Below, one piece after another: positions 30,175-63,998 of a DNA stretch of 64,000 nt (the first letter of the stretch is position 1; every line of letters begins with the position of its first letter). Under the pieces are notes generated by a model. The model worked only from the letters and a program-made list of their open reading frames with translations. It was not told the origin of the DNA and made no database searches. The stretch comes from Candidatus Latescibacterota bacterium (GTDB lineage Bacteria; Latescibacterota; UBA2968; UBA8231): the NCBI GenBank assembly GCA_965248265.1, contig CBDFJF010000002.1, forward strand, positions 3,872,001 through 3,936,000, given 5' to 3'. A program made the position numbers and the translations under genes.

Positions 30175-30192
30175 GAAATCCTTTGAGTGATC

Positions 30193-31348: not shown

Positions 31349-31419
31349 GACCTGGTTCAGCCTTCTCGAATCGAGGTGCTGACCATGGCGGAACGACCTG
31401 CGCGAGTTGGGAAGCCATC

Positions 31420-32197: not shown

Positions 32198-32261
32198 AAT
32201 CGTGCCTCAGTGCTATCGTTAACCATCAACGATTTAAATTTTAGTTCTGTTGGCACGATTT

Positions 32262-32289
32262 GGCACTTCTCATAAAAGCAGTTAAGCGT
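32262..32289 (+). other. Minimal attC/attI hybrid junction
   Basis: GGCACTTCTCATAAAAGCAG|TTAAGCGT; left part complements the cassette start at 31496, right part complements R'' at 32867. Confidence 0.75.
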
Positions 32290-32342
32290 CATAAAGCTAA
32301 TACACTCGTAGAATCCATATAGTCTTTGTTCCATAGGAAGGG

Positions 32343-32874: not shown

Positions 32875-32959
32875 CAGCACCGTTCGCGCTGCGCGCCTTT
32901 CGGCGCTTGGCCTTCGGCAACCCGCATGCGCGGGTTCGCAAACCGGCAAAACGTTAAAT
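32869..32959 (+). other. attC site (branched family)
   Basis: GCTTAAC..GTTAAAT; the grpB stop codon lies in R''. Confidence 0.9.
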
Positions 32960-32983
32960 GACATGGGTTGAAGAGATCGCATT

Positions 32984-33499
32984 ATGCCATCAACTGTGCC
33001 GCGCACACGAAAGCAACTTTTGGACGTTGTAGAAACCGGATACGCAGAATTGCAAGCCGAGCTTGCCAAGGGCGACCCGAGACTTGGGAATGTAGTTTGC
33101 GTCGACGACTGGACCGTTAAGGAATTGCTTGCGGTGCGTTGTTGGTGGAGCGAAGCCGTCGTGTCGTGGGTCCGCACTGCACGCGACGGAGGAGAGTTGG
33201 ATCTTCCAGCTCCAGGTTTCAAATGGAACGAAACGCCCAAACTGAACGCCAGCATCGCCCGTCGGTCCAAGCGAGAGACATATCTTGGCGTCAAAAGGCG
33301 CCTTGACAAAGCCTATCAAGATGTGCTGGTGTTAATCGGTGAGTTGTCGGACCGGGAGCTGTGCAAGCCAGGCGTCCTTGGCTGGACAGTAAAATGCGCG
33401 GCATGTCAGTTGATTGCTCTAAACACGGCGCGGCAATACTGTACAGCTCGGACCTTCATTCGACGCACTCTTAAATCCATGCAGGACGCCGTGCACTGA
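32984..33499 (+). CDS. ClbS/DfsB (DinB-like) four-helix bundle protein (cassette)
   Basis: PRTRKQLL, WTVKELL, PAPGFKWNETPKLN, NT..QY. Confidence 0.8.
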   Translation: MPSTVPRTRKQLLDVVETGYAELQAELAKGDPRLGNVVCVDDWTVKELLAVRCWWSEAVVSWVRTARDGGELDLPAPGFKWNETPKLNASIARRSKRETYLGVKRRLDKAYQDVLVLIGELSDRELCKPGVLGWTVKCAACQLIALNTARQYCTARTFIRRTLKSMQDAVH

Positions 33500-33585
33500 A
33501 GAGACGCTTGGATTCCGGATTTATTGACTCTTCATGGACTTGAGAGACAAGGACTGGTGTTGGGTGTCAGGGAACAATGTCCGAC

Positions 33586-33606
33586 GTCATTTAAAAGCAG
33601 ATAACC
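33586..33606 (+). other. Minimal attC/attI hybrid junction
   Basis: GTCATTTAAAAGCAG|AT; GTCATTTAA complements cassette start TTAAATGAC at 32954. Confidence 0.7.
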
Positions 33607-33754
33607 GTCATGGCTATGAGATGCTGATCACATTGATCGAGATGAACTTATTGGGTGAAACCGGTCTCTGGGCACATGCCCTTCCCCTTTTCGCCGCCGA
33701 TGACAACAGGCAGTAAAAATCATTGAGCGGCCCTCCGCAGGCGCTCAAAAATGA

Positions 33755-34363
33755 ATGGAGAGCTTGATGGCAACTACTGAGACAGCGCTACTACTGCTTG
33801 ACCTCCAAAACGAGATTGTCGATCCGAAAGGGAAAGCAGGTGCAGAAGGCCTCGCTGGTCCGGTCGCCGAACGGAAAATTCTTGAACGGACAGCCGACTT
33901 GTTGAAGGCGGTTCGGACGAGAGGAATAGCGGTAATTCATGTGGTGGTCTGTTATCGTCCAGGCCACCCCGAGTTGCCACAGGCGGTGCCATTGGCCGAA
34001 TGGTTCAGAGAGGATGAATTATTGGTTGAAGGGAGTTGGGGAGCCCAGATACATCCCTTGGTCGCACCTTTCCCGAACGAAATTGTTGTAACCAAACGAG
34101 GGATCAGCGCCTTTGCCAGTTCAGACCTAGATGTCGTCCTCAGATCGTTGGGGATTTCGACAATAGTTCTGGCTGGAGTCGCAACGCGCTTTGTCGTTGA
34201 AGGGACGGCGCGAGATGCCTTTGAGAAGGGGTTTTCGTACATAGTGCTGGAAGACTGCTGTGCGAGCAGTAGTCCAGCGATGCATGAATCAGCGATTTCT
34301 TTCATGTCTAATTTTGGGGAGATCACTACCTCAAAGGAATGGTTACAAACCCTCGAGATATAG
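33755..34363 (+). CDS. Isochorismatase-family cysteine hydrolase (cassette)
   Basis: ALLLLDLQN, K..ISAF, GVAT, TARDA. Confidence 0.9.
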   Translation: MESLMATTETALLLLDLQNEIVDPKGKAGAEGLAGPVAERKILERTADLLKAVRTRGIAVIHVVVCYRPGHPELPQAVPLAEWFREDELLVEGSWGAQIHPLVAPFPNEIVVTKRGISAFASSDLDVVLRSLGISTIVLAGVATRFVVEGTARDAFEKGFSYIVLEDCCASSSPAMHESAISFMSNFGEITTSKEWLQTLEI

Positions 34364-34376
34364 GAGATTGCCCGTC

Positions 34377-34481
34377 GTCTAACAGCACGGTGATGCGCTG
34401 CGCCGCATGCGCGGCTTGGCCTTCGGCAACCACTCTTCGCTATGCGCTCAGAGCGGTCCGCAAACCGGCAAGGCGTTACGC
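34377..34481 (+). other. attC site (branched family)
   Basis: GTCTAAC..GCTTGGCCTTCGGCAACC..CGCAAACCGGCAAGGC GTTACGC. Confidence 0.85.
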
Positions 34482-34614
34482 GCAAGCTGAATCACCCGGG
34501 TTTCTCCGGATGCTCGATTGTGTGAGTCACGAAGTCAGCGAGTACTGCGTCCCTGGCAACTGCACTGCGTCTGCTTAGTCCGCAGGGCACTTTCTCTAAG
34601 ATCAAGAGGCAAGA

Positions 34615-35025
34615 GTGACTGAAGACCTCGATGTCCTACGTCAGATACTGCTCGAGTTCTGCGACGCGGAGCGGGTCGAGTTCGATGTCGCCTCGATTGA
34701 GGAATATCCCTCTGCTAGGCCGCCATTCAAGGCTCGCTGGAACGACGATGAAATCGTAGCGATCGAGATTGCCGAAGTCAGTCCCGGAGGCGGTCTTCCA
34801 CCGGTGTACTATGAATACATGGAACTCCCACGTTCGGAGGCGCCCGTGGATTTGCTCCTCCACTGTGAGAGCTGCCCACAGCCTGAGCCGGAACCAGGCG
34901 CAGCCGATAGCTTGAGGCAGTTGGAAGTCGATCTGCTCCTGCGTGGAGGAAGCCGACGGCAACCTTTCAGGAGACTGTGGCTCTACGAGCGGTCGACGAA
35001 GCAAGTATTGGGTTGTTATTACTGA
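34615..35025 (+). CDS. Hypothetical protein
   Basis: RBS GAGG; co-oriented within the array. Confidence 0.6.
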   Translation: MTEDLDVLRQILLEFCDAERVEFDVASIEEYPSARPPFKARWNDDEIVAIEIAEVSPGGGLPPVYYEYMELPRSEAPVDLLLHCESCPQPEPEPGAADSLRQLEVDLLLRGGSRRQPFRRLWLYERSTKQVLGCYY

Positions 35026-35039
35026 GGCGGTAAAACACC

Positions 35040-35615
35040 TTGTCCAATAGAGGTTTACTAAACCTTCCCGAGGAATTCGAGGACATTTTAACCGCGCAGG
35101 TCTTGCCCGGTCAGGGCAGGCCTATCGACTGGCCGCCACACCTAGCAAAGCATGAGTTCCTAGAGTTTTTGGTCCGACGCAATTATTGTCTGCACGGCTC
35201 TACCCACAAGAGCCTAACCATTCTGGAACCAAGGACGGCAAGTAGTCCGGTTGCAGGACAAGCAGAGACTGCTGTGTATGTCACTACGGATACACTCATG
35301 GCCCTATTTTTTGCAATCTTAGATAGATCAAAGATTTCATTCTTCGCTACCCGCTCTGATCCATCCTTTTTCTTTCTTTCTCCAGGGGCACTCCACCTGA
35401 AGCCGTGGACCGATGGCATGGTCTATATCTTCAAGCGGGACGATTTTGAATTTGCTGGCGGGCATCATGTGAGCTACCAACCCGTATCACCCGATGCGAA
35501 ATTGCAGTTGTCACCGTGCGACTTTCCTCTCTTCAATAGGATTTACGAGATTGAGAGTCTTGAGGAGACAGACGAGAAGTTCGAGAAGCTCAAAACCGAA
35601 TTCTACAGCCGATAA
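35040..35615 (+). CDS. Hypothetical protein (HGS..LEPR..VY motif, ART-fold-like)
   Basis: Stop codon lies in attC R''; RBS GAGG. Confidence 0.65.
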   Translation: MSNRGLLNLPEEFEDILTAQVLPGQGRPIDWPPHLAKHEFLEFLVRRNYCLHGSTHKSLTILEPRTASSPVAGQAETAVYVTTDTLMALFFAILDRSKISFFATRSDPSFFFLSPGALHLKPWTDGMVYIFKRDDFEFAGGHHVSYQPVSPDAKLQLSPCDFPLFNRIYEIESLEETDEKFEKLKTEFYSR

Positions 35616-35692
35616 CAGCGGGTTGATGCTGCGCGCCATACGGCGCTTGGCCCTCCGGGCAACCCCTTCGGGGGTTCATCAACCCAGCGGGG
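35610..35692 (+). other. Terminal attC lacking the R' GTT
   Basis: CGATAAC..GGGTTGATG / CATCAACCC with branched core; no GTT follows. Confidence 0.75.
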
Positions 35693-35694
35693 AA

Positions 35695-37017
35695 TCAGTC
35701 GGTCCCGCCGATGCAGTACAGGTGGGTCCCGGTGCGGATGAACAGCTGGTCTCCGGCCACCGCCATCGACGACAGGGTGAGGCTGCCGTCGAGTTCGTTG
35801 ACGTCCAGCTGCTGCAGCTTCGGTCCGGCGGCGAGGACCGTGGTGACGCCGTCCTCATTGGTGACGTACAGCTTGCCGTCCGCGAGCACGGGAGAGGCGC
35901 TGACTGAGCCTTCGGATGTGCGGTGAGGTCCCCACGTGAGGCGGCCAGTGGCGGCGTCAAGGCAGGTCACCTTCCCGCGGTCATCGACCATGTAGAAGTA
36001 ACCCTTGTCCGCGACCGGCGTAGGCACGTCAGGGGCGCCGGCGCCGGTCCAGCTCCAGGCCAAATCGTCGCTCGATACCGTCTCCGAGGCGCCGAGACGG
36101 AAGGCCTGCAACGGTTTCTCCACGGTCGGCACGAACAGCATGTCGCCGGCCACGACGGGCGAACCGACGATCCGGCAGGCGCCCCACTTCTCCGGATTGA
36201 GGCCACCGACGCGCCACACCTCCACACCGGTCGCCGGGTCGTGGGCGGTCACGTAATCGGCCCCGGACACCACGATCTCGCGCCGACCGTCACGCTCGAT
36301 GAGCACGGGCGTGGTGTAGGCGTCCGGCGACTCGGCGACCGCATCCGTATGACGCTCTCGACGCCACAGCACCTCCCCCGTGGCCGTGTCCAGGGCGATG
36401 ACGTAAGAAGGGTTGCCCGCCTGCTCCCCGTGGAGGACTGCGAGGATGAGCCTGCTTTCCGTGAGCAAGGGCGACGATGCATACCCGAACTGCATCCCGA
36501 ACCGGCCGTATTGCTCCTGCAAGTCCCGTCGCCAGACCACGTTTCCACCCATGTCCAGGGCGGTCACGAGTCCGGCGCCAGTGACCGTCCATACGTGCCT
36601 GCCATCGGTGACCGGAGACGGCGAGGTGTTGTCGTGCTTCCTGTGCATCTGGTTGCCGGTATCGAGTGATCGGCGCCAGAGCTCCGCGCCATCCGCTCTG
36701 GCGAGACACAAGAGCAACAGCGCATCCTCACCCGGGTCGTGTCCGGTCTCCGACGACTGAGTTCCCTCCACGGGCCTGCTCGCGGAGGTGACCAACACCC
36801 GATCTCCCCACACCACCGGCGAGCCGCCGCTCCACGACGGCAGCGGTGCCGACCAGGCGATGTTCTCGGCGGCGCTCCAGCTTGTGGGCAAGCCCGTCGA
36901 CGCACTGACGCCATTTCCGTGAGGGCCGCGCCACTGCGGCCAGTTCACATCGGCTTCGGTGTGCACGCTCCAGATCAGTGCGATAAGTACCGCAGCGCTT
37001 GTGCCACGCATAACCAT
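35695..37017 (-). CDS. PQQ-binding-like (BamB-like) beta-propeller protein
   Basis: Signal peptide, NWPQWRGP, SSP repeats, D..TG..LW, LFIRT..HLYCI. Confidence 0.9.
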   Translation of the reverse strand: MVMRGTSAAVLIALIWSVHTEADVNWPQWRGPHGNGVSASTGLPTSWSAAENIAWSAPLPSWSGGSPVVWGDRVLVTSASRPVEGTQSSETGHDPGEDALLLLCLARADGAELWRRSLDTGNQMHRKHDNTSPSPVTDGRHVWTVTGAGLVTALDMGGNVVWRRDLQEQYGRFGMQFGYASSPLLTESRLILAVLHGEQAGNPSYVIALDTATGEVLWRRERHTDAVAESPDAYTTPVLIERDGRREIVVSGADYVTAHDPATGVEVWRVGGLNPEKWGACRIVGSPVVAGDMLFVPTVEKPLQAFRLGASETVSSDDLAWSWTGAGAPDVPTPVADKGYFYMVDDRGKVTCLDAATGRLTWGPHRTSEGSVSASPVLADGKLYVTNEDGVTTVLAAGPKLQQLDVNELDGSLTLSSMAVAGDQLFIRTGTHLYCIGGTD

Positions 37018-41735: not shown

Positions 41736-41764
41736 CGACCCGCGGAGTCCTGATCCGATGGTCA
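41736..41764. repeat. 11-7-11 site (direct repeat with 45552)
   Basis: CGACCCGCGGA gtcctga TCCGATGGTCA. Confidence 0.85.
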
Positions 41765-41773: not shown

Positions 41774-44700
41774 CTATCTCAACACGACCATCTTCTGAGA
41801 GACAGCCGCCCTGCCAGCGACGAGCACTCCCACGTAGACGCCCGAAGCCACCGACTGGCCGTCCGCGTTCCTGCCGTCCCAGATAGCGGCTTGCAGGGGT
41901 GCCGCGTAAAGGCCGGGCTCGCGGTCGCCGACATCGAGCTCCCTGACCAGCTGACCGAGGGTATCGTAGATCTTAATTTTAACCGAACTCTGTCTGAACA
42001 CGCGGAACGGCAGGTGCGTTCCCTGGTTGAACGGATTGGGGTAAATCGGCAGCAGCACGGCGTCCTTCGGTGTCACCGTCGTCAGTCCATCAGCGGAGCT
42101 CTCGTCCCATACTTGCCAGAATTGCAGCGTGCCGTTCCACGTTCCCGTCGTGAGTTGAGTTCCGTCCGGACTGAATGCGATCGCTCGTATGCCGCCGGCA
42201 TTCGTCAGTTTGACCACTGAGCTGAGGGAGGTATCGATCCTGCGCAGATAGATCGTCCCGTCAAGGCTCGCGGTTGCCAGGCCTAGTCCATCGGGAGTGA
42301 ACGCCGCTGCCTCGATCCAGTCGTCGTGTTCGCTGAGGACCTGACGAAGCGCTAAATAGATTCCTCCTCCAGTGCGAAGTCGCGCCGTCCTGTCGCGGCC
42401 CGCCGAAACGAATCTCGACCCGTCCGCATTGAAGGCGACGGACGCCACCTCGCCGCGGTGACTCTTCAGCACGGCGAGCAACGTGTGATCCGTCGTCTCC
42501 CACATCGCAACTGAGCCGTCACTGCTGCCGGCAGCCAGAACATTGCCGCCGACCGGGTCCATGGCCAGCGACATGACCGGCTGAGGTTCATCTCGCCTCA
42601 GTGTCGCCAGCTTCTGTCGCTCGTTCACATCCCACAGATCCAGACTACCGTCGAGACCTGCGGAGACGAGCGTCGGCCGCACAGAGCTGAAGACGAGGCC
42701 AGATATCCCCTCGCTTTCGTGCCCCTGAAACTCAGCAATCTGTTCGCGCGACCTCGCGTCCCACAGGCGAACCGTTCCGGCCGCATCCCCCGAAGCGAGG
42801 AACGGATCATTCGGGCTGAACGCCACCGCTGTCACCTCGTCCTCATGGCCGTTCAACACAGCCGTTCTCCGCAGTGAGACCGGATCGTACAGCTCGATGC
42901 TTGTGCCAGTAGCCACTGCCAGCTGGGCTCCCTTCGGGGAATACGCCAGATCGGCGACCGGCGCGGAGACAATGAGCTCAACGACCCCGCCGGGCAACGG
43001 TCCGGCTTGTCCACCTCCCATGTTCACGAGGTGCAGTGGCGTCTCGGTCACGTTCCCCGCCCCATCTGTCGCAATACCTTTGAGGAGATAGGTTTCCTCG
43101 GTGGCGTCTCGCCAGATCGCCTCGTACCGACCGGCCTTTTTCGCCAGAGCTATAGTCGCAATCTGAGTCGTGTCCCCGACGCTGTAGATTACACCCGTCG
43201 CCTCGAGCGGTCCCGCGTTCGTAACCCGACTCTCGGGCAGTACGATCGACAGCCCATCTGGCACACTCTGGGTCAGGAATGGCAGTACGCGCGGCGGCGT
43301 GCGGTCGCCACCTGCGGCCACCTCCAACTGCAGGGTATCGATGGATGTTTCATACCCGCTGTCGAAGTCGATCTCGAACTCCAGGACGGTGCCGGGGATC
43401 AAGTCGGATGCCAGCAGAAATTCCGGTGAACGAATCGCCCCGGCCCCGAGTGCATCGTCCTCGTCGAAACCGGAAAACGGGAACGGCACCGGCATCGCCT
43501 CCTCCTGCAGACTTCGAATCCTCACGGATGTGGCGTCCACCATCTCCGCTCGTCCTTCCACCTCCACGGCCAACCTGATGAACTCGCCGGCTTGCACCAA
43601 TCCGTCGCCGTTCCCGGCACTGTCCACGACGGCAATACGGGTGATTCGCGGGGGCTCCGAGGAGACCACTTCGAGGGGGAACTGCTCCATCCACAGCAGC
43701 TCTCGGCTTTTATCCCGGGGGTACACCGACAAATTCACCCGAAACGCGTGGATACCTACGAATCCTGGCTTCACCTCGAGTATGGGTATGCCGTTCGTCG
43801 ACTTCGATTCCGCGGCGTCATAGAACCGCATGCCGGCTTGGAGCTCGCCCTCAAAATCGTTCCAGCTGTTCGGAATTCGCTGCTCTGGTGTCCCCGCGTG
43901 AAAATCCACCACCGGATCTGTGATGGTGATCAGCGTGTCCTCACTTGTCACTTCCATTTGGAGCCACGGTGTAAGATTCGGCCAGGACGCGAGTCTGAAT
44001 TCGATCTGGGCGGTTTCTCCCACCACCAGAACACCGTCGCCGTTTTCGTCCCGGATCCGCACATCCATCTTCACGAGCGGCTCGATCTCGACCTGTGCCG
44101 TGGCGACACCACCCGCTTCGAACGCAATATCCTCGATGCGAACTCTCCACCAGCCGTCATTGCTGGCGGAGCTTGGATTGCTTTCGGGGGTGAAGGAGCG
44201 AAACCGATCGCCGTCGAACGGGTCCGTGTCGTCTCCGAGATTGCCGGCGTGATCTCGGGTGTACCTTTCGTCATGGGCCCAGAAGTCGAGGTTGTCCTTC
44301 CCAGTTTCGGGATTGGCCTCCGTTCCCTTCGGAAACCCGGACGAGCGCCACTTGCCGTCGGCGCATTCCAGATCAACCCGCTGCGCTCCGCGCCTCCTCG
44401 GATCGAAGTGCCAGATCAGCAGGCCCTCGGCAGGCATGTTGCGGTCGTAGTGCGCGCTGGACCGCTGGCGATTCGAGATGAGAAATCGCTCGTTATTCGG
44501 AAGCAGGATCTCGTAGATCTCACCACTCTCTTCCACCGGCGGCAGTCGCATGCTGCTGAGCCGCTGGGTTGGCCGCCGCCGCTCCAGCCATCCGAGTTGA
44601 CTTCGACTCCAGGCGCTGAACGGGTTTGGACCGTCTGCGCCACTCCAGCCAAGGGCGCCCCACCCCATCAGACCCCAGGCGCCGATGCCGGCAGAATCCT

Positions 44701-45520
44701 CAGCGGGTTCCAGGGGGACCTCACTGCGTAGGTACCCGACGTTGCGCAGGTCCGGCAACCCCAGGATGTGACCGTATTCATGGCTGATCGTTGCGGCGAG
44801 CACAGCATAGGATCGGCCGGCCTGAATCGTACCGTGTAGCACCTCGATCGGCTCACCCGATGCCCTTCGATCGGCCGTGACGAACGTCGGCTCGAGCCCG
44901 AGACTAGCCACTCCGGTGGCCGGTCCGAACAGGAAGTTCCGCGGCGCAGAACGCACAGCTATGAACACGACATCGACGAAGCCGTCGTCGTCGCCGGAGT
45001 CCGGCAAGCCGTCGGGACCATCGTTGTCGAATCGCGAGAAATCGACGTCCCGATCCGCCTTGCGAAGGATCTCCGACGCGAACACTCCGAAGTGGCCGCG
45101 CTCCGACGATGAATCGGAAAGGTATGCTGAGACTTCACTGTCGGATTCGTACCAGGTTGGTACCACCTCGCCGCGCAATGTGTGCACTCCAAACGACATC
45201 GTGTCGTAGAAGTGACTGACGCTGCCAGGTCGATCGGGATCGAAGAGGTCATCCGCCCAGTCGGGGATTGCCGTATCGGCAGGCAGTTCGTCCTTGAAAT
45301 GAGCGAAAAGAACAATCCCCGTACGAGTGGTAGCGACCTGAGCTTGAGTGGGCTTCGCTGGCCCATGGAGCTTCAGTGTAGCTGCATCCGTGGCCACATG
45401 GCCAACGCACACAAACTCATCGCCAGCCCAGACGTTCGTCGTGAGCACGGTACATAGCGGGATCAAGGCCTTGAGTGTAGCAGTTTTAGGCGATGGCAGC
45501 ACTCTGATTTCCTTCACCAA
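41774..45520 (-). CDS. M6 (immune inhibitor A-like) metalloprotease + WD40 repeats + FlgD-like CTD
   Basis: HEYGHILGLPD, WGLM Met-turn, GLLIWH; GH..WD repeats; YPNPFN..WDGRN..SGVY. Confidence 0.9.
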   Translation of the reverse strand: MVKEIRVLPSPKTATLKALIPLCTVLTTNVWAGDEFVCVGHVATDAATLKLHGPAKPTQAQVATTRTGIVLFAHFKDELPADTAIPDWADDLFDPDRPGSVSHFYDTMSFGVHTLRGEVVPTWYESDSEVSAYLSDSSSERGHFGVFASEILRKADRDVDFSRFDNDGPDGLPDSGDDDGFVDVVFIAVRSAPRNFLFGPATGVASLGLEPTFVTADRRASGEPIEVLHGTIQAGRSYAVLAATISHEYGHILGLPDLRNVGYLRSEVPLEPAEDSAGIGAWGLMGWGALGWSGADGPNPFSAWSRSQLGWLERRRPTQRLSSMRLPPVEESGEIYEILLPNNERFLISNRQRSSAHYDRNMPAEGLLIWHFDPRRRGAQRVDLECADGKWRSSGFPKGTEANPETGKDNLDFWAHDERYTRDHAGNLGDDTDPFDGDRFRSFTPESNPSSASNDGWWRVRIEDIAFEAGGVATAQVEIEPLVKMDVRIRDENGDGVLVVGETAQIEFRLASWPNLTPWLQMEVTSEDTLITITDPVVDFHAGTPEQRIPNSWNDFEGELQAGMRFYDAAESKSTNGIPILEVKPGFVGIHAFRVNLSVYPRDKSRELLWMEQFPLEVVSSEPPRITRIAVVDSAGNGDGLVQAGEFIRLAVEVEGRAEMVDATSVRIRSLQEEAMPVPFPFSGFDEDDALGAGAIRSPEFLLASDLIPGTVLEFEIDFDSGYETSIDTLQLEVAAGGDRTPPRVLPFLTQSVPDGLSIVLPESRVTNAGPLEATGVIYSVGDTTQIATIALAKKAGRYEAIWRDATEETYLLKGIATDGAGNVTETPLHLVNMGGGQAGPLPGGVVELIVSAPVADLAYSPKGAQLAVATGTSIELYDPVSLRRTAVLNGHEDEVTAVAFSPNDPFLASGDAAGTVRLWDARSREQIAEFQGHESEGISGLVFSSVRPTLVSAGLDGSLDLWDVNERQKLATLRRDEPQPVMSLAMDPVGGNVLAAGSSDGSVAMWETTDHTLLAVLKSHRGEVASVAFNADGSRFVSAGRDRTARLRTGGGIYLALRQVLSEHDDWIEAAAFTPDGLGLATASLDGTIYLRRIDTSLSSVVKLTNAGGIRAIAFSPDGTQLTTGTWNGTLQFWQVWDESSADGLTTVTPKDAVLLPIYPNPFNQGTHLPFRVFRQSSVKIKIYDTLGQLVRELDVGDREPGLYAAPLQAAIWDGRNADGQSVASGVYVGVLVAGRAAVSQKMVVLR

Positions 45521-45551: not shown

Positions 45552-45580
45552 TGACCCTCGCAGTCCTGATCCGATGGTCA
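45552..45580. repeat. 11-7-11 site containing the original phosphotransferase stop codon
   Basis: TGACCCTCGCA gtcctga TCCGATGGTCA. Confidence 0.85.
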
Positions 45581-45642: not shown

Positions 45643-46874
<1,232 letters not shown>

Positions 46875-46887
46875 GACTCCAATCCTC

Positions 46888-47856
46888 TCAAGAAATGGAG
46901 CCTCCGGCAACCCCGGGGCGATTCAATTCGTACTTCGCCTGCGTACTCTGGCTCCATTCACGAGTCACGACAGACAGGCGACGTCGGCTTTCCTGCTTTC
47001 CCTCAAGGACCTCCGCTATTCGCACCAGCCAACCCGCGATAGAAATAGACAAACAAGCGCGTATGCGATTCTCGACATCAGGGATATCAGTAACACTCGC
47101 GTAGCTCGATATGACCCACTCCCAGCGTGACTCCGATACATCCATGTAGGTAGCGTGTGTCATCATCTCGGCGATATCGAAGGCAGGATCGCCCCAACCG
47201 CTGTATTCCCAGTCTACTGACCTGATTGACCCATCGTGCCGGATGAAGTTACGTACGTTGTGATCAGCGCGGCAGAGGCCGGCGGGCACACGAGGACATC
47301 CGCCAAAGTTCAGTTCGGCAAGATTCCCAGTGACGTCAAGAACAGGCGTCGGTAGCCGCTTCTCCTGAGCAATTGCGTGTAATCTGCTCGCCTCTCGTGC
47401 GTATTCCTCTGCACCATTCGCATTGTTGTAGCACCCAAGAAGATCGACCGTGGCATGGCGGAGCGCATGGACTGTAGCCAGATACTCAAGCAGATCGGAC
47501 CATTCCTGGTCCTCGCGGGGTGCCGTCTGGATCATGTCGCCGGGCAGCCAAGTCTGGACGACTACCGGTTGCGGGTAGCTGTCCGTGTCCAACAGAATAG
47601 GCTCCGGTGCCAATGCACCACCTGCCTCTTTCAAGGCACAGAGGGCCCCATATTCACGGTTAGCGCGGTCTCGCTCATCACGAATCGTGAACTTGATGGC
47701 GAAATCACCGGAATCGCCACATGCCCTGAATAGCAGATTGTTTGCCCCGCCCGTAACCTGCCCTATATGCCAACCGTGCCAGATCTCTTCGGGACGATCA
47801 CTACCCGCGAGGTAGTCCAACAAGGCTCGAAGCTGTTGTTCGTACACTGCGCTCAT
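46888..47856 (-). CDS. Aminoglycoside/choline-kinase-like phosphotransferase; last 10 codons displaced by IS3
   Basis: GGANN, AIK, D(H)[19 protein letters not shown]; removing the IS restores KYEYYLERARRNR-stop at 45578. Confidence 0.85.
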
Positions 47857-49821: not shown

Positions 49822-49956
49822 CATGCGAGATGCTCAGGGCGCCGTTGCGACTAACTCAGTGTCATGGGTCGTTCCTACGCCGCCATTCTCTACCCTTACA
49901 GTTGGCGCGAGTCAGGATTCATTTTCATTTAGAGCCGGAAAGGATTCGAGGCACAC

Positions 49957-49985
49957 CGGGAATCAGATTGGAAGTCCGATGCTCG
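49957..49985. repeat. 11-7-11 site
   Basis: CGGGAATCAGA ttggaag TCCGATGCTCG. Confidence 0.75.
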
Positions 49986-50321
49986 GAGGGTCAGTCTTGC
50001 CATAGAGGCCACGACCACATGACGCGGACGAACGACACAATCTAACCCCAGCCGCTACTCTACTGCACCGGCTTGGCGCCTTTTCGCCAACGGATTGGGG
50101 GTCCGTTGTCCTCTCAAATTTGCCAATCTGTCCAGGAAACAGACGAACAGCCTCCATCTGTCCTGAAAGCTGGACTCAGGCCAATTTGAGCCGCTTCTCA
50201 GGTGATCCTCTCTGCCTCAATCCCCACAGCTACAATGAGTTAGCGCCGCCTGACGCCCGTGAGAGCGTTCTTGGCACATCCCTTGCAATGGTGTATGGTA
50301 GTGACCTCGGACAACTATGCC

Positions 50322-54706: not shown

Positions 54707-54906
54707 TCCTGCAACTCTTGGCGATCAATACGGGCAGTTTTCAGGTGATCATATGCGGGGCAGAGAAGCCAGGTGGGATTTAGATGGAGAGATTATGGAG
54801 AGAGCCCCCGAGACATGCACGCAACGTGGCGTCCAGAACGGACGAATGGGTTTCGAACTTGCCCCTGCAGGGCTCACAACCGCCTTTTCTACATTGACTT
54901 ACGGGG

Positions 54907-54974
54907 TGGCGGGAACGTGTGGGAATCGAACCCACCCAGCGCCGCTGTCGCGACACCGCAACGGATTTGAAGTC
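54907..54974 (-). tRNA. selC: 3' fragment of tRNA-Sec (att duplication; 5' half absent)
   Basis: GACTTCAAATCC (UCA anticodon), long variable arm, GGTTCGATTCC, CGTTCCCGCCA; no complementary 5' acceptor strand upstream. Confidence 0.88.
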
Positions 54975-55144
54975 TGACGCTTTGTGTAACCCTCTTTGGA
55001 TTGTTGATCCAATGCAGCGGCCCGGTGGACTTATGCTCTAGTGGAGTCGTGGAAACGGGCAGAGACTGCAGCCGCTTCGTGAGCGAGGCCCAACGACCCA
55101 GTTCTGCTAAGCCAGCGAGAATCAGTCAAACCTGTGGTGCTCTG

Positions 55145-55173
55145 CGGGCATCTCAGTGATATAACGAAGCGCG
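55145..55173. repeat. 11-7-11 site (diverged)
   Basis: CGGGCATCTCA gtgatat AACGAAGCGCG. Confidence 0.5.
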
Positions 55174-55204
55174 GATCGGCCGTTCGGGCTCGAGTCCACT
55201 TGTA

Positions 55205-56413
55205 TTAGTGCAGCTGGTCCCAGTTGCGTCTAAGCAAAGGGCCTCTATTCTGGACGAGGGCGGCCAGAGCTCCGTTGTTGACCGCGACAATGTCACCAAA
55301 GTCCCTCTTATTTCCATGTATTCCGGCAGTGTGCAGCACTGCAAGTACCTGCTCGGCGTCCGCAAGTGCTTGCTGATGCTCCTCCACTGCGGAATCAAAA
55401 CTGACCGAGGCTGTGTCTGTGATCTGCTCGCGCAAGCAGTGCAGATAGTGTCGAAAAGCCTGTTGCTCTCCCAATCCTATGGATGAGGGTTGTGCACCGG
55501 TAAAAAGCGGAGAGACAAATTCGGACTCCATTGATGCTGGGGGTTGCATGGTCGCCAGCACTTGTGTGTTTTGGGCAAGATCTAGGAAGGGTATTGTGAA
55601 TTCAGACAGTGCCTGGGGACAGTAATACCAGGTAGTCCGCTGCCTGATTTCATCTTCATGCACCTGTTGGAACTTCTCGGGAGGAAACGAACGCACGTTC
55701 ATCCAGGTTCCGGAGCAAATTGCGTTTACTCCGGCAGCTGATGCGATGAGCATCTGGTGGTTGCAATACCCAATCACAACCTCAGAGTTTCTCAACCGCA
55801 ATCCCGCACACACGTCAAGAAGATTAGCAAGCCAATTCGGATCTGTCGTAAGGTAGTCTCCCCTCGGATGCTCCCAAACCAAATAGAAACCTGTGTCAGT
55901 CCATGCCTCTGATCGATCCATCAGCAATGCAATCTGCTCATTGTTACGTGCTGCATCAGCAGATAGAGCAATCGTCATGAGAATCGGTATGTCTCTCGAT
56001 TGAGCTCGGGCTTCCTCGAGTATTAGGCTGTGTATTGCAATCCAATCCTCATTCACTTCGTTAGCGAGTACACCCGGCAGGATGAATCTGTCTGTGGCCA
56101 AACGACGGTTTTCGCTCAATAGCTCACTTATCAGGAGAGCCAACCTTGGACCGTCCCAAAAAGTGCCGGTATCGTATTCATCGGGCCAGTAGAAATGAGA
56201 CCGAAGCCTCTCGTGAGAGGCGTGCGGGAGATAGAACTGTGGGTCAAGGAGCACGCGTCCGTTTGGGTGTTTCGTGATATCATCTGCCAACCTGTCTAGT
56301 TGGCCGGAATCGAGATCTCGAGGACTCAAAACTACTGTCCCACCTTCCCACCGCGCGACTAATTCGCGGCAATGTCCCATCATGCCGTGGCCAAACTGTA
56401 GGTATAACTCCAC
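55205..56413 (-). CDS. Hypothetical protein (possible TIM-barrel, beta-protein/sce7725-like)
   Basis: 402-aa ORF coupled to the kinase; LSPRD, LDPQFY, SGTW.N.R.F, HYL motifs. Confidence 0.75.
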   Translation of the reverse strand: MELYLQFGHGMMGHCRELVARWEGGTVVLSPRDLDSGQLDRLADDITKHPNGRVLLDPQFYLPHASHERLRSHFYWPDEYDTGTFWDGPRLALLISELLSENRRLATDRFILPGVLANEVNEDWIAIHSLILEEARAQSRDIPILMTIALSADAARNNEQIALLMDRSEAWTDTGFYLVWEHPRGDYLTTDPNWLANLLDVCAGLRLRNSEVVIGYCNHQMLIASAAGVNAICSGTWMNVRSFPPEKFQQVHEDEIRQRTTWYYCPQALSEFTIPFLDLAQNTQVLATMQPPASMESEFVSPLFTGAQPSSIGLGEQQAFRHYLHCLREQITDTASVSFDSAVEEHQQALADAEQVLAVLHTAGIHGNKRDFGDIVAVNNGALAALVQNRGPLLRRNWDQLH

Positions 56414-56424
56414 CTTCTGTACTC

Positions 56425-57285
56425 CTATTCCTCGATGCCTTCCGCGGCACAGATTTCCTTGACCCAGACGAAAACGCCTTCGGCAGTAGTTGGCCGTTGA
56501 TCTCTGCGTATCTGCGTCAGAGACTGAACTAAGTCACCGAAACTATCCTCTTGCTCCATATCCACGGTGACCCTTGGCAGTCGTTGAGTCTCAACGCGCT
56601 TCAGGACGTCTAGATCATTTCTGGCGCCCAGCCTGAATGGATTCGTGCCAGTCGCACACTCGTAGATGGTTACACCAAGGGCGAAAAGATCTGCTCGGAT
56701 ATCGATGTCCGCTTTCACGTTCCGAAACTGCTCTGGGGGGGCATAGCCGGGAGTGAATTTCCCAAAAGGGTTGCCAGACGGTGTGTGCGAGGTGAGCTCC
56801 AGATGACGCGAGATTCCGAAATCAAGCAACCAGAAATCGCCAACGTCATCATGAATGATGTTTCCTGGTTTAATGTCTCGATGAACGATCTCGTTCTCCT
56901 CGGCAGCAACAAGGGCCTCCAACATTTGGCGAGATAGACGAAGTAGTGCGAGAGCCTGCATTGGGCCAGATGCCGACAGCTCTGCGCTAACCGGGGAACC
57001 AGGGATCCGTTGCTCTAAGAGAAAAGAGCACAGGCCAAACGGGGCGCTGATTTGACCGTACTCGAGAATTGGTGGGACCCGACTTGAACTGACACGCTGA
57101 ACCGCCCGAATCTCCCGCGCCACAGATTCGGCATCCTGTGTCGGCTTGATGATCTTGAGTACGATGTCGCCGTGATCAGGATGAGTTGCCGAAAACACCC
57201 ACTTTTGCCCCCCAGGCGTCAGAGCTGTCACGTTGTCAAGAGAGGGAAACTCGTTCCTCACCCACCCGGCGGACAGCTGCATCAC
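56425..57285 (-). CDS. Hanks-type Ser/Thr protein kinase (soluble)
   Basis: GGQK.V, VLK, RE, HRDIKPGN, DFG, PGYAPPEQ, DLFALG. Confidence 0.95.
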   Translation of the reverse strand: MMQLSAGWVRNEFPSLDNVTALTPGGQKWVFSATHPDHGDIVLKIIKPTQDAESVAREIRAVQRVSSSRVPPILEYGQISAPFGLCSFLLEQRIPGSPVSAELSASGPMQALALLRLSRQMLEALVAAEENEIVHRDIKPGNIIHDDVGDFWLLDFGISRHLELTSHTPSGNPFGKFTPGYAPPEQFRNVKADIDIRADLFALGVTIYECATGTNPFRLGARNDLDVLKRVETQRLPRVTVDMEQEDSFGDLVQSLTQIRRDQRPTTAEGVFVWVKEICAAEGIEE

Positions 57286-58019
57286 AATCTTCCGCTATAC
57301 AGAGCTGCGCGCCAGGAGGACTCGTTAAACACCCAAGAGGCGTGAGAACGAGGGGAGCCAATCCGAGGACTTTTGGATATATCAATTACTCCCGTGCCTG
57401 GACAGATGATGCCGACTCCGTGTGCTTCAGCGACATCCGCAGCTCGCGAAGCGACGGGCGAAGGAACCAAAATGTAGGAGCTGGTGGCGAACCATGTATT
57501 CAAGAACGCCTGTCTTACAGCCGATCGCCAGTCCCCGATCTTGGCCTCAAAAGCCACAATCTGTCTGATGGCGTAGTTGTGGGAAATGCTTCGCGGCTTG
57601 ATAAGACCGCCCGAGATTTGGATTGTGTCTGCGTACAACAGGTGCTCCAGAATCCTGTCGAGGCTTGTTGGAAAAACTGAACGCAATCCCTCGTACCTGC
57701 ATGCCCCACGGCCTGTCAGATAGTGTAACACACGAAGTGTTGACGGATTCAGGATCGCCCGCAGGGCCGACCACCGGCGGGTAACTCCTGGTGACCATAC
57801 AACCACTACCACATCTGGGTAGCCCGAGTCGATCCGCGGTTCACAGAATACAGTCGTTTCGCAGTCTCGCGGAATTCGAACTCGCTGTTCGGCAAGAAAC
57901 CATCGTACCATCTCGGTCTCCGGCCCCTCCCGAGGGCGTCGGAACGCCATCCCAAACTCTTCTCCATGCTCGTAGTCAATAATCCATGGCTTCGTTGCCG
58001 AATCCATCACTTGGACCAA
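57282..58019 (-). CDS. PD-(D/E)XK-like protein with inserted HTH-like segment
   Basis: E..E...GYPD..AFEAK..W..A..QA..N..F. Confidence 0.7.
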   Translation of the reverse strand: MVQVMDSATKPWIIDYEHGEEFGMAFRRPREGPETEMVRWFLAEQRVRIPRDCETTVFCEPRIDSGYPDVVVVVWSPGVTRRWSALRAILNPSTLRVLHYLTGRGACRYEGLRSVFPTSLDRILEHLLYADTIQISGGLIKPRSISHNYAIRQIVAFEAKIGDWRSAVRQAFLNTWFATSSYILVPSPVASRAADVAEAHGVGIICPGTGVIDISKSPRIGSPRSHASWVFNESSWRAALYSGRL

Positions 58020-58137
58020 AACCCGACTCCCCTTCTACATAGTGAGAGCTGCTGTGTACCTCGAATATACCCCGGCTCGTGTTTCCTTGACAATGAAATA
58101 CAAACTGCTCGTACCAGCGCAGATCGCCACTTCTGGC

Positions 58138-58195
58138 CGACCGTCAGTCGAACATCCGATGCTCGGCGAGCATCGTTGTCTTGCAACGACAATCC
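58138..58195. repeat. Tandem pair of sites (11-6-11 and 11-7-11) next to the tyrosine recombinase
   Basis: CGACCGTCAGT cgaaca TCCGATGCTCG g CGAGCATCGTT gtcttgc AACGACAATCC. Confidence 0.7.
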
Positions 58196-58246
58196 GTCAC
58201 ACTGGGGAGGGCAGGTCGATTCGATTGACAGGCGCGTGACGACGGC

Positions 58247-59098
58247 TCAGAAGCCGCCAGATGCTCGGGGTGCGGCGATCGGGTGATTTGCATTGAGAGC
58301 TGCGATCGCTTCTACAAGCTGCTGAGGACGTGCGTGAGCATATCGCAACGACATTTCCATTGTCCGGTGTCCCATCACTTGCATGATGCGATCTATGGGT
58401 ACACCTCGGTCTCGTAGGCGGGTAGCTAGGGTATGGCGTAGCATGTGTAGGTGGACGTGACCGACGTTAGCCCGCATTCCGGCACTGTGCAATGACCTCT
58501 TGATGTCCCCGAACACGATGACACGTTGTTCGGGTTCCGTCAGCTCGGGCTTCAACCTCATCAACATCGATCGGACCCGATCCGTCATAGGGATCACTCT
58601 GTAGTCCTTATTCTTGGACTGTCGCACGGTCACGGTGCCGGTCTCGAAATTTACATCGCGCCAGGACAGTCGTTGGAGCTCGGAGCGCCTCATTCCCGTG
58701 TCCGCTGCCATAATCACAACCTGCCGGGTACGCTCCGGACATTCGGCGATCAGCGCATCTAGCTCATGATCGCTCAGTGCGTCCGGCACACGGCTCTGTT
58801 CCTTGAGCATAGAGAGCCTTGTCGTGGGGTTGTCTGATATATAGTCCCAGTTGCAGGCTGTCTTGAACAGCGTCTTCAGGGTCGCCAGATAGCGATTGGC
58901 TGTGGCCGTGGTGATTCCGTCAGTGTTGCGCCGGCGCGTCAGGTATCGCTCGATCTGGCGTGTGGTGATGGAATCCAGAGAATGGCCCCCGAACTCCTCA
59001 TCGAGCTTCCTGAGCATTCCGGACAGGCCTCGCCAGGTATTGGGGCTCCAACCTCCGAAATCAGTGCGAAACTCGCTAAGGAACTCACCGAATGTCAT
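58247..59098 (-). CDS. Tyrosine recombinase (core-binding + catalytic domains)
   Basis: TGMRRSE, SKN, HMLRH, GH..MSLRY; no IntI-specific insertion. Confidence 0.93.
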   Translation of the reverse strand: MTFGEFLSEFRTDFGGWSPNTWRGLSGMLRKLDEEFGGHSLDSITTRQIERYLTRRRNTDGITTATANRYLATLKTLFKTACNWDYISDNPTTRLSMLKEQSRVPDALSDHELDALIAECPERTRQVVIMAADTGMRRSELQRLSWRDVNFETGTVTVRQSKNKDYRVIPMTDRVRSMLMRLKPELTEPEQRVIVFGDIKRSLHSAGMRANVGHVHLHMLRHTLATRLRDRGVPIDRIMQVMGHRTMEMSLRYAHARPQQLVEAIAALNANHPIAAPRASGGF

Positions 59099-59251
59099 GC
59101 GGATCCGCGTCTATTGAGGGAATCTGGCCGGACAGGAGTCGTGACCTCCGATCCGGCCAGAACAGAAAAACGGGCGCCATAACCGGTGGTCACGACACCC
59201 GCATTCAGTGCTGCTACTGTCATCTAAAACTAGAGATCCGCGGCGACAGCG

Positions 59252-59839
59252 TCAATGATTTCGGCTGGATTTTGCGTACCTCATCGCCGTGCCCGGCGCG
59301 ATGCCCAGTTGCTTGGCGATGTCACGGTATGACAGCCCGCCAGAGCGTAAGGCTCGGACCTTGGACTGCTTGGTCAGCGGGATCTGCTTCCGTCCTACAT
59401 GCTTGCCCCTTGCCTTGGCAGCCGCCATTCCAGTCTTCACCCGCTCGCGGATCATTTCCCGCTCGAACTCGGCGATTCCGGCCAGAATGGTGAACGTCAA
59501 TTTCCCAGCCGCCGTGGACGTGTCGATCTGCTGTCGGAAGCTGATGAAGTCCACCCCAAGCTGCTGAAACTCTTCGAGCGTGTTCACTAGGTGAGACGTG
59601 CTGCGGGCGAAGCGATCGAACGCCCATACGAGCACGAGATCCACCTTGCCTGTCCGAACTTGCTCCAGCATCTGATCGAGCTCTGGACGCTGTCTGGCGG
59701 TTCCTGAGGCCTTATCAATGTATTCCCCGACAACCTCGAACCCACGGTGGTTGGCGTATTCCCGCAGCTCGTCCACCTGGCCGTCCACGTCTTGATCGGT
59801 GGTCGAGACTCTGTAGTAGATCGCGGCGCGCTTGGCCAT
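59252..59839 (-). CDS. Serine recombinase (resolvase/invertase) with C-terminal HTH
   Basis: YYRVST..Q, SG...RP, DRFARS, AEFERE, GR. Confidence 0.95.
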   Translation of the reverse strand: MAKRAAIYYRVSTTDQDVDGQVDELREYANHRGFEVVGEYIDKASGTARQRPELDQMLEQVRTGKVDLVLVWAFDRFARSTSHLVNTLEEFQQLGVDFISFRQQIDTSTAAGKLTFTILAGIAEFEREMIRERVKTGMAAAKARGKHVGRKQIPLTKQSKVRALRSGGLSYRDIAKQLGIAPGTAMRYAKSSRNH

Positions 59840-61883: not shown

Positions 61884-62147
61884 GACGGCCTTCTCCGTGG
61901 CGACAAGCGCGCGTAGTGAACTCTACTACTAAGATACAGGCCGTGCCTGTTGTGGGCTAGCCTCCATGCTCAGGAGCGTGTCAGCCATGCTCTCAGCCAT
62001 CTGCCGCCTCGCTCACGGGCTTCCCAAGCCATGTTGTGTTATAGTTCTGTTGCTCCAGATGATGCCCTGCTCACCTGGCCCCCCGCGCGCTCGGCCTTGG
62101 CCCCGCTTCTTCCTCTCAGCGCGGGCCTCGTATGCCGGAACAACAGC

Positions 62148-63998
62148 ATGGATCTTGGCCCCACCACCTTCGATGATCCGCACATAAAGACTGCGATCCT
62201 CGGGGCGATACGCGAAGGTGAAGACCTTCCCTTTACTTCCGAGTTGGATCAAGCCCTCTCCACAAACTGGCGAGGATTTGAGAGTTCGACCAAGCCCCTG
62301 GCTGCCCTGCAGAGCATGCTTCGACATGAGGATGTTCCGCGCCTGCTAGAGCATTCCCAAGGACCTCCCCTGAAAGCGTTCCGGGCCTTGTGGCACTCCG
62401 GCCTCTTCCGCAAGGCTCGAGAGCTCGCTCAGGACTCAGAGCTGGGCATCGGGGTGCCTTCCACTCCCACTTCGACCGTGCGTTCTGCTGGGCCACATAT
62501 ATACACTCAGCCTCAGGAGGAAGGATTCGCTGATGCAGAAACCCTGTCGGAGTGGGGAATCTGGGGCATTTCGGCGGAGGCGCTAAGACTCATGAGGGAC
62601 GTGCTCATTCGGGGGTCGCTACCGTGGGTTCTACGATCGAACATACTGCTCACCGGACCCGAAGGCACGGACAAACTGAACGTCGCTCGAGCCCTGCACG
62701 CCCTCAGAAAACGGGGACACTTCGAGATACTCGACTGCCGGTGTATCGAGTCAGACCCAAGCGAGCTGATCCAGGCGTGTGTAGCGGGTGGGACCGTTTT
62801 CCTTAGGGGCCTTGAGTTAGTGCCTGCGCAGTGGGGAGCAGCCGTTTACGAGGCCGTGGCGCCAACGCACAAACTAAGAGGAAAAGAAGCTTCTATTCGT
62901 GAAGACGAAGCGATTCACATCGCTGACACTCTATTCATCGTGGACGTAAGCAATCGATATGCACACGGGGTAGCGGGCGCGCTCTGCCGCCAAGGTCACT
63001 GGGACGAGGTGGGAATGCCGCCCCTCTCGCAGCGTACGGCAGACATTCCACTCCTGGTGAACCAAGCTCTACTGAGACACGGAGTGCCAAGCCCGATAGA
63101 CGAGAGCCGCCATCGTTTCGCCGTTGCGTTGTGGGAGTTCTACGAGGAACATGAGCCACCAGGCGACAGTGCTTGGCTGGAGAGCGAGATAAAACGATGG
63201 CTGGGGTTTCTGGCGCCCGCGACATTGCCGGCACAGAGCGATCCCGTAAGTGAATCCACGGACACACTTATGGACGAACAATCAGAGTGCGTTTTCAGAC
63301 ACGCAGACAACCGATGGGAATTCGTGTTTGAGGGCATGAGACGCGATGTGGCCGTGGCCCTAGATGGATTCCGTTATATACGGTATTTACTGAAAACAGG
63401 GGGCTGGGAAGGGGGAGTGTCGGCTACTGACGTCCGAGCCTGTAAGATCAGCCGCGAGGTGGCGGGCTACGAGGACGAAGCAACGCGCCAAACGGACAGA
63501 GCCATCAGTGAAGGTAAGATGCAGAGTGACAGGACCCAGGTCGCTCGCCATATCACCGGGATGGTGCCCGACGACCCAGAGGACGACTCCTCATTGAGTG
63601 AGGGTGAATTGGATGAGGGTGATAACGACGGGAAAAGGGTAGATCGTGGCGAAATTACGGATCCTCAGACAGTAAATGTCGTCACAAAGGGGATTGCGGA
63701 CATCGAAGAGGAACTAAGGATAGAGGAAATGGATCGAGAGAAGCGAGAACAACTGGAAGAAAAGAGAATCCAGCTCAAACGCTATCTCAGTGAGAGCACT
63801 GGCCTTGGTGGTCATCCGCGCAAATTTTCGGAACAACAGAAGAAAGATCGGGATGCTGTGAGGAATGCGATCGGGCGAGCGAAGAAGCTTCTAGATATGC
63901 ACCATCCGATTCTTGCAGGACACATCCACAGCTACGTGCACTACTCGGGGGGTACCTGGCACTATACGCCCCCCAAGCCCCTCGACTGGCACACCTAA
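62148..63998 (+). CDS. Hypothetical protein with degenerate sigma-54-activator-like AAA domain
   Basis: ILLTGPEGTDK..VARALH, GGTVFL, PPLSQRTADIPLL; no GAFTGA loop. Confidence 0.7.
   Translation: MDLGPTTFDDPHIKTAILGAIREGEDLPFTSELDQALSTNWRGFESSTKPLAALQSMLRHEDVPRLLEHSQGPPLKAFRALWHSGLFRKARELAQDSELGIGVPSTPTSTVRSAGPHIYTQPQEEGFADAETLSEWGIWGISAEALRLMRDVLIRGSLPWVLRSNILLTGPEGTDKLNVARALHALRKRGHFEILDCRCIESDPSELIQACVAGGTVFLRGLELVPAQWGAAVYEAVAPTHKLRGKEASIREDEAIHIADTLFIVDVSNRYAHGVAGALCRQGHWDEVGMPPLSQRTADIPLLVNQALLRHGVPSPIDESRHRFAVALWEFYEEHEPPGDSAWLESEIKRWLGFLAPATLPAQSDPVSESTDTLMDEQSECVFRHADNRWEFVFEGMRRDVAVALDGFRYIRYLLKTGGWEGGVSATDVRACKISREVAGYEDEATRQTDRAISEGKMQSDRTQVARHITGMVPDDPEDDSSLSEGELDEGDNDGKRVDRGEITDPQTVNVVTKGIADIEEELRIEEMDREKREQLEEKRIQLKRYLSESTGLGGHPRKFSEQQKKDRDAVRNAIGRAKKLLDMHHPILAGHIHSYVHYSGGTWHYTPPKPLDWHT

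Follow-up and report, generated by a model that had tools for sequence, protein, structure and literature searches.

A tyrosine recombinase without an arm-binding domain and its neighboring core sites look like a working gene-swapping device of partly new design in a Latescibacterota genome

In this study, we describe a tyrosine recombinase gene, here called rec, and the short two-armed sites that accompany it in a stretch of 64,000 nucleotides (nt) of DNA from a Candidatus Latescibacterota bacterium. The stretch, hereafter the window, corresponds to C2:3872001-3936000 of a 7.32-Mb genome that consists of two contigs (C1 and C2) with 59.6% G+C. The rec gene lies at 58247..59098 on the minus strand and encodes a protein of 283 amino acids (aa). 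Past its stop codon (58247-58249) stands a tandem pair of core sites spanning 58136-58194, which is followed by a variable three-gene segment (55163..58143, minus strand) and then by a second site pair of B type (55112..55172, plus strand). The case that we make rests on this one genome and on one sequenced sample.

The rec product belongs to the tyrosine recombinase superfamily, since it scores 96.3 bits (2.3e-27) against the Pfam model Phage_integrase PF00589, for which the cut-off is 27.1, and a SAM-like core-binding domain is recognized at 1.7e-6 (Pfam). An earlier reading of the DNA, made from its letters alone and referred to below as the original prediction, had credited the protein with the full R-K-H-R-H-Y catalytic set, and all six residues are indeed in place (R137, K162, H218, R221, H244, and Y253); R137, K162, H218, R221, and Y253 are invariant across an alignment of 15 sequences, two of which carry Q at the position of H244. 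The AlphaFold model (predicted local distance difference test score, pLDDT, 85.9) contains a four-helix core-binding domain, with its first helix at residues 3-13, and then the catalytic domain, with nothing ahead. A longer in-frame N-terminus is impossible because the open reading frame (ORF) begins at the first start codon after a stop. Alignment, Pfam, and the structural model are thus in agreement with the earlier claim that an arm-binding N-terminal domain is absent, which makes rec a simple (core-binding plus catalytic) tyrosine recombinase in the sense of PMC8138268 and sets it apart from the arm-domain tRNA integrases of the lambda, P4, and P2 type. From its modeled structure, rec is predicted to act on core sites only. 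The best curated match is the XerA model (122.5 bits against a cut-off of 220), and the protein likewise stays below the cut-offs for XerC (93.8 vs 335), XerD (93.6 vs 330), XerS (40.5 vs 267), and the integron integrase IntI (TIGR02249, 74.3 bits vs 265; NF011946, 31.9 vs 435). As had been proposed, the model has no IntI-specific extra segment. Among solved structures, those closest to rec are XerA, the Tn1549 integrase minus its arm domain, IntI4, XerH, and residues 75-356 of lambda Int.

Alignment of all copies resolves each site pair into two adjacent core sites, each of which is made of two inverted arms of ~10 nt (consensus near GACCATCGGA plus its complement) around a spacer of 7, sometimes 6, nt. 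Beside rec, site 1 (58168..58194, plus strand) has the 7-nt spacer GTCTTGC, a rec-side arm that varies among paralogues, and a conserved far arm, and site 2 (58139..58164, plus strand) has a 6-nt spacer and the arm TCCGATGCTC to which the original prediction had drawn attention. The pair was then placed 52-109 bp past the stop codon, in close accord with the 53-111 nt measured here. The two inner arms together form a perfect 9+1+9 palindrome (58157..58175, found by palindrome search), which is terminator-like on the plus strand only and not on the strand of rec. A fold of the whole 48-nt site as one hairpin through its outer arms was considered and rejected, as the left side varies and the right side is fixed, with no covariation.

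The link between enzyme and site comes from the paralogues. A tblastn search of the genome located three further full-length copies of rec (C2:3033502, C1:703266, and C1:685715) and a fragment of 88 codons (C1:731073), and the protein identity among these paralogues is 80-84%. Pairwise, the full-length copies have ratios of nonsynonymous to synonymous divergence (dN/dS) of 0.06-0.12 with dS of 0.9-2.1, indicating that they are old and under selection. A tandem site pair lies downstream of all four full-length copies in identical orientation; between copies its identity reaches 92% across 38 nt and 89% across 47 nt, despite near-saturated synonymous sites and flanks that cannot be aligned. When 8 kb on each side were compared as DNA, nothing beyond the gene was common except the site pair and, in one copy only, a 95-nt leader. 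Two of the copies have a small ORF, unrelated from one to the other, inserted between gene and site. Moreover, the motif is present in one of 76 genomes of the family, and only that genome has rec copies of at least 80% identity. The downstream pair is therefore very likely to be rec's own site, judging from this comparison of copies, and the pairing of enzyme and cognate site first proposed from the window gains from it. The leader itself (59113..59207, minus strand) is common to paralogue P1, the 95 nt being 92% identical, and includes two 9-nt inverted repeats that interleave in pseudoknot-like order, the first of them followed by a terminator-like T run; the stems are identical in the two copies and offer no covariation to judge by.

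Sites of this family are numerous and unevenly spread. A profile built from seven sites finds nine places with E <= 3.5e-9 in 7.32 Mb, and by regular expression and profile the full tandem site occurs at nine places; lone core sites that combine these arms with different spacers are frequent in the genome. A consensus scan returned 119 sites at 15 or more of 20 arm positions, 40 at 16 or more, and 13 at 17 or more, against 43, 6, and 0, respectively, in a reversed-sequence control. Fifty of the 119 fall in C1:650-1050 kb, where the sole recombinase homologues found with rec as query are three rec copies, and five fall in the window. Most sites are intergenic, near stop codons, and kilobases apart, and several are halves that end after the inner arm. 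The window sites include two on the plus strand with the spacer GTCCTGA and 18 of 20 arm positions each (41737..41763 and its partner 45553..45579) and a degenerate member (49954..49999, minus strand) recognized by profile search and consensus scan. The latter holds the arm at 49975 that had been reported as identical to one beside rec. The identity stands, as the window has two exact copies of TCCGATGCTCG and no more, one at 49975 and the other at 58155. Its significance does not, because with one mismatch there are five matches where 2.45 are expected, a number equaled in 13 of 100 shuffles, so that arm sharing by itself is not significant.

The segment between the two pairs contains a 245-aa ORF (57282-58019), a Ser/Thr kinase (56425-57285) that matches the PADLOC anti-phage family PD-T4-6 at 4e-36, and a 402-aa ORF (55205-56413), all on the minus strand; a promoter-like site of the segment's own lies at 58093-58064. 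Neither the 245-aa nor the 402-aa cargo protein has a match in Pfam, PHROGs, or PADLOC. The pair that closes the segment comprises, by alignment of copies, site 1' (55146-55172, spacer GTGATAT) and site 2' (55117-55142), both on the plus strand. The same order of rec, site pair, cargo, and a second site pair in the same orientation is seen in three loci, with cargo of TetR, MFS, and PAS histidine kinase genes at C2:3.03 Mb and of one 250-aa ORF at C1:702 kb.

The Logan contigs of four runs (X1-X4) of one sample hold the stretch. In both X3 and X4, one contig (depth 8.6 and 9.0, respectively) aligns up to 55162 and resumes at 58144, skipping 2,981 nt, and the contigs that hold the segment have depths of 9.6 and 12.4. 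The boundary 55162|55163 coincides with an edge of the 7-nt spacer in site 1' of the second pair, and at 58143|58144 the window site ceases to follow the consensus of the remaining copies. In three of the four runs, the main contigs end at 58187-58189, which is the outer edge of the site pair. Elsewhere, three sites have ~45 nt in common on one side only, and two further site pairs have one flank alike (78% and 85%) and the other not (12% and 20%). Beyond the second pair, at 55035..55082 (plus strand), a sigma-70/TPR gene is reduced to its final 15 codons and the stop, and the full gene occupies the same position beside paralogue P3. The flanks are thus mosaic and break at the sites. With regard to the proposal that cargo is loaded beside rec, contigs of two of the four runs leave out the segment, or have something else in its place, precisely at the sites; this fits the proposal, and the loading itself is plausible but unproven.

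It seems that the enzyme descends from integrases that target transfer RNA (tRNA) genes and that this ancestry accounts for the shape of its sites. The nearest named relatives of rec come from metagenome-assembled genomes of Gemmatimonadetes and Latescibacterota, and the best match among 40 other genomes (60% identity) is truncated by a contig end. Close homologues at 77-91% identity occur in other assemblies. Homologues at 50-60% identity are longer, at 310-352 aa, with 55-84 extra N-terminal residues, which in the model of one long relative form four strands (11-41) and a helix (47-62) at pLDDT 82-87. Full-length lambda Int aligns to a long relative over 350 columns and to the short protein over 272-280, and the Pfam arm-domain models give no more than faint matches (E 0.018 and 0.13). 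By descent, to judge from alignment and fold, rec probably groups with arm-domain proteins. In this genome, a classical integrase next to tRNA-Gly is the one place with the N-domain of the long forms, and no remnant of it lies near the short copies in any upstream frame, which indicates that the short clade lost it cleanly. Loss of an arm domain of the same kind is described for Rci, within the IntP2 group, in PMC8138268. Among 91 loci whose homologues are 26-60% identical, a count in which several places appear twice, 58 have a tRNA or transfer-messenger RNA (tmRNA) within 700 nt, and all 58 have homologues of 45% identity or less. In many loci an antisense tRNA follows the homologue gene by 77-212 nt, the same arrangement as that of rec and its mimic site. 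None of the five rec copies has an intact tRNA within 700 nt, and ARAGORN found no whole tRNA in the window. The original prediction looked to the neighborhoods of homologues for the motif; rec and motif co-occur in the present genome, many of the distant homologues stand beside tRNA genes, and no instance of the motif was found outside this genome.

The sites carry the same signature. The consensus scan also catches the anticodon arms of tRNA-Met and tRNA-Lys genes in this genome, the site profile catches those of tRNA genes that neighbor distant integrase homologues elsewhere, in other genomes, and most spacers, read on one strand, have T at the second place, as anticodon loops do. We take the arms to read like the edge of the D-stem plus the anticodon stem, and like the anticodon stem plus the variable loop. 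Compared with the 57 tRNA genes of the genome, the sites give only 12-nt chance matches and no continuation into the T-arm, which indicates that they are mimics rather than tRNA fragments. From this pattern of letters, the sites appear to copy the shape of the tRNA anticodon arm targeted by the ancestral family, and the idea of 11-7-11 sites as a free-standing novelty has to be given up.

We propose that rec is an active site-specific tyrosine recombinase whose ancestors were integrases with crossover in the tRNA anticodon loop, and that its clade has shed the N-terminal arm-binding domain. Its substrates would be short core sites, with inverted arms of ~10 nt and a spacer of 6-7 nt, that imitate the D-stem edge, anticodon arm, and variable loop. 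The pair at 58136-58194 would be its own site and the junction of a ~10-kb phage- or satellite-like block with the adjoining DNA, and blocks such as the three-gene kinase segment would go in or out, or be exchanged, at such sites. A putative dimer of rec would bind the two arms, with putative cleavage at the spacer edges. As the segment borders have no letters in common, the exchange would tolerate unlike spacers or need one pair of strand exchanges only. That rec is the cognate enzyme of these core sites and that blocks are exchanged there is, in our judgment, somewhat more probable than an even chance. The pairing of enzyme and site is well supported within one genome, and the mechanism and the wider cassette idea discussed below are what we infer from it.

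Several observations weigh against this proposal. The boundary 58143|58144 lies inside the outer arm of site 2 and not at a spacer edge. The junction comes from Logan contigs of a single sample, its shorter aligned side is 25 nt, and intervening letters are possible; the joint is not listed for X1 and X2, which say nothing either way because their depth is low. The two segment borders are without the common overlap letters that classical reciprocal exchange would leave, and the spacers differ between the sites that flank each cargo, so that classical reciprocal exchange is not shown by the data. Moreover, many of the 119 consensus sites are noise, given 43 in the control, and the motif is absent from the 75 other genomes of the family. 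In a metagenome scan for the inner-arm pattern, all 10 matches were chance occurrences in unrelated coding DNA, none with a rec homologue.

The position of rec bears on what the site is for. The gene is the last of a ~10-kb block that has a small terminase subunit, a family A DNA polymerase (642 aa, L106:1429-3357), a helix-turn-helix (HTH) repressor-like gene, and a serine resolvase/invertase; the last of these lies directly upstream of rec (59252..59839, minus strand) and is not in the unit common to the paralogues. The block also includes an ORF of more than 682 aa with a weak AAA/sigma-54-type match (window 61950-63998), and its far side is bounded by two tRNA-Thr genes. This gene content suggests a phage satellite or a defective prophage. 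Because rec ends such a phage-like block, the site may equally be the end junction of the block, or a resolution site, as opposed to an integron-like loading platform. A search for a far-end partner site of each rec block, at 12 or more of 20 arm positions, gave nothing convincing except a true tRNA-Thr anticodon arm at C2:3940398.

In keeping with this position, rec and its site could be a multimer-resolution or stabilizing pair of a plasmid- or phage-like element, as Cre-loxP of P1, TnpI-IRS of Tn4430, and XerS-difSL are, with the cargo incidental. Recombinases that lack an arm domain and sit beside their own site are typically resolution systems, the block that rec ends carries replication and packaging genes along with HTH and resolvase genes, and a ParB-HTH gene stands upstream of paralogues P2, P3, and P4. 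We nevertheless regard such a maintenance role as unlikely, as it leaves unexplained the dozens of like sites over 365 kb, the second site pair that closes the cargo in three loci, and the coincidence of the segment borders with sites, and the block in the window already encodes a serine resolvase.

A second possibility is that the sites are fossil junctions, scars left in tRNA-like targets by integrases with arm domains, and that rec moves nothing now. Such a scar lies beside the second site pair. It is an orphan 3' part of the selenocysteine tRNA gene selC (54905..54974, minus strand), which runs from the anticodon stem to 2 nt past CCA and is identical over its 70 nt to the intact selC and the next 2 nt. 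The original prediction had placed this fragment about 3.3 kb from rec with a site-flanked operon in between, and this is what we find, the pair at 55112-55172 closing the three-gene stretch. The intact gene lies on the other contig, at C1:3016780-3016878, with no integrase beside it, and the fragment is the only one in the genome. If the end of C1 were joined to that of C2, the orientations of selC and the fragment would fit, with the two 377 kb apart and bounding an island. The differing spacers of paired sites and the sites that are mere halves also speak for scars. On the other hand, four rec copies are under strong purifying selection, the site is better conserved than synonymous positions, none of the 57 tRNA genes is similar to the sites, which have no T-arm following them, and both forms of the segment appear to be present in the sample. 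On balance, rec as a relic among old scars strikes us as improbable.

It could also be argued that the sites are structural repeats, such as repetitive extragenic palindromic (REP)-like or terminator hairpins at gene ends, unlinked to rec. Most are intergenic and near stop codons, the pair beside rec can fold into three hairpins, and group II introns, which often target hairpins, sit inside such sites. However, the second pair folds no better than shuffled sequence (z +1.4 and +1.6) and the first only weakly so (z -1.5 and -2.0), there is no T run on the strand of rec, terminator-like matches number four against 3.0 expected, the changes in the arms are not compensatory, and the sites keep to a small number of regions in which the rec copies lie as well; we therefore think this very unlikely. 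Least credible of all is the fallback offered in the original prediction, a selC island integrase with a lost or frameshifted N-terminus: the selC fragment is indeed 3.3 kb away on the same strand and the wider family targets tRNA anticodon loops, but the short form is the rule in the clade of rec, being common to several paralogues and to proteins of other assemblies, and it is under purifying selection; no frame retains a trace of the N-domain, rec and the fragment are separated by a site pair and the remnant of a gene, and the intact selC on the other contig has no integrase of rec's family nearby.

Further features were seen around sites of this type. In the window, a 1248-aa WD40-repeat gene (41774-45520, minus strand) lies between the two direct core sites at 41737-41763 and 45553-45579, which have the same spacer, and an IS3-family element with a frameshift signal (45643-46910) lies just outside the latter. 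Group II intron copies stand inside core sites in the window (~19560-21613, minus strand) and at C1:695942-697995 and C1:725092-727145; in all three copies read, the intron is between CG and ATGG of the right arm, just past the 7-nt spacer, and intact sister sites are found at C1:680381 and C1:876903. At gathering scores, Rfam reports only the IS3 frameshift signal and the group II intron in the window. On C1, a region of ~365 kb (C1:650000-1050000) has its 50 core sites at a median spacing of ~5 kb. Three rec copies accompanied by ParB-HTH genes lie there, as do group II introns, many internal repeats, and small HTH genes that recur, each with a site at its end; the region may be a large element that has integrated, or a hypervariable one. 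At C2:1141662-1156705 a 214-nt module occurs in four copies, and the tandem site at C2:1145207-1145262 lies ~100 nt past one 507-nt copy; a link between this tandem site and the modules was set aside, as no common sequence was found. The window also contains an integron-type attC array (28960-35700, plus strand) of at least six repeats of ~95 nt, with inverse cores such as GCTTAAC and cores such as GTTAAAT. Its genes are small and on the same strand (glyoxalase, DUF3592, GrpB, DUF1706, and isochorismatase), and the first repeat directly adjoins an IS481-type transposase. No integron integrase above the cut-off was found genome-wide, the best candidate (C1:1754240-1755055) being in two pieces of 138 and 101 bits.

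If the proposed exchange at core sites is correct, an ordinary integrase of tRNA genes can dispense with the arm-binding domain and still function on portable mimics of the former target, and a one-site integration system has turned into a many-site system of module exchange. This would provide a natural comparison for the origin of integrons and dif modules, and a compact recombinase of 283 aa with a site of ~27 bp could be of use in genome engineering. A bolder extension is that of a third gene-cassette system beside those two, in which arm-less recombinases derived from tRNA integrases move modules of one to four genes, including anti-phage genes, among ~50-75 mimic sites in the 365-kb region and several smaller islands without spacer matching; we offer it tentatively and hold it to be doubtful. 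Within these bounds, rec and its sites look like a working gene-swapping device of partly new design. The accessible portion of the literature on recombinase gene cassettes, dif modules, anticodon-loop integrases, and tycheposons yielded no description of this arrangement.

Several known systems can be compared with this device. Among integrases of tRNA genes, crossover in the anticodon loop (attP subsite 'A') accounts for 2083 of 3919 islands in the Islander study (PMC4383910). These enzymes and rec agree in family, as homologues at 26-45% identity stand beside tRNA genes, and in a 7-nt overlap between inverted stem arms. In both, the gene is followed after ~60-150 nt by an antisense tRNA or tRNA-like site, and the selC fragment of the window starts at the anticodon stem. 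Unlike them, rec has no arm domain, its target is a multi-copy mimic of ~27 bp and not a tRNA gene, and its element has no displaced tRNA fragment at the far end.

The shufflon recombinase Rci of R64 acts on short core sfx sites with a 7-bp spacer and inverts segments between inverted sites within the 3' end of a gene. The catalytic domains of the P2 and HP1 integrases are among the nearest solved relatives of rec, which adds to the likeness. In contrast to a shufflon, the paired sites described here are direct in three loci, intergenic, and placed around whole genes. Like rec, Rci has no arm-binding domain, although it belongs to an arm-domain clade (IntP2) according to PMC8138268.

Integrons resemble the rec loci in having a site next to the recombinase gene and then cargo that ends in a second site, with no overlap identity needed at the borders, and also in the group II introns inside rec-type sites. 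Group IIC-attC introns sit inside attC sites in the same manner. Unlike attC and attI, rec-type sites have no GTTRRRY core and the second pair has no fold of its own, and unlike integron cassettes, rec and its cargo are co-oriented and the sites are kilobases apart and form no tight array. Archaeal XerA (PDB 4a8e and 5hxy) is the best match of rec in sequence (E 3.2e-17) and in fold (Foldseek E 7.3e-13), and both are two-domain proteins of ~280-290 aa. In contrast to XerA, rec falls below the 220-bit cut-off of that family and is not a single housekeeping gene serving one dif, as its four full copies and one fragment lie in accessory regions and islands with dozens of sites; a chromosomal dif was not sought.

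A further parallel in organization is that of the dif modules on Acinetobacter plasmids. Their pdif sites alternate in orientation. According to PMC6449649 and other studies, modules of one to several genes, served by XerC/XerD, are bounded by many two-arm sites of 27-28 bp. The two systems agree in placing gene modules between many copies of a two-arm recombinase site, and they differ in that the dif modules depend on the XerC/XerD of the host and on a 6-bp spacer, whereas the modules described here are accompanied by dedicated paralogous recombinases and by sites, on which the host Xer proteins may act as well, that mimic the arms of a tRNA and not dif.

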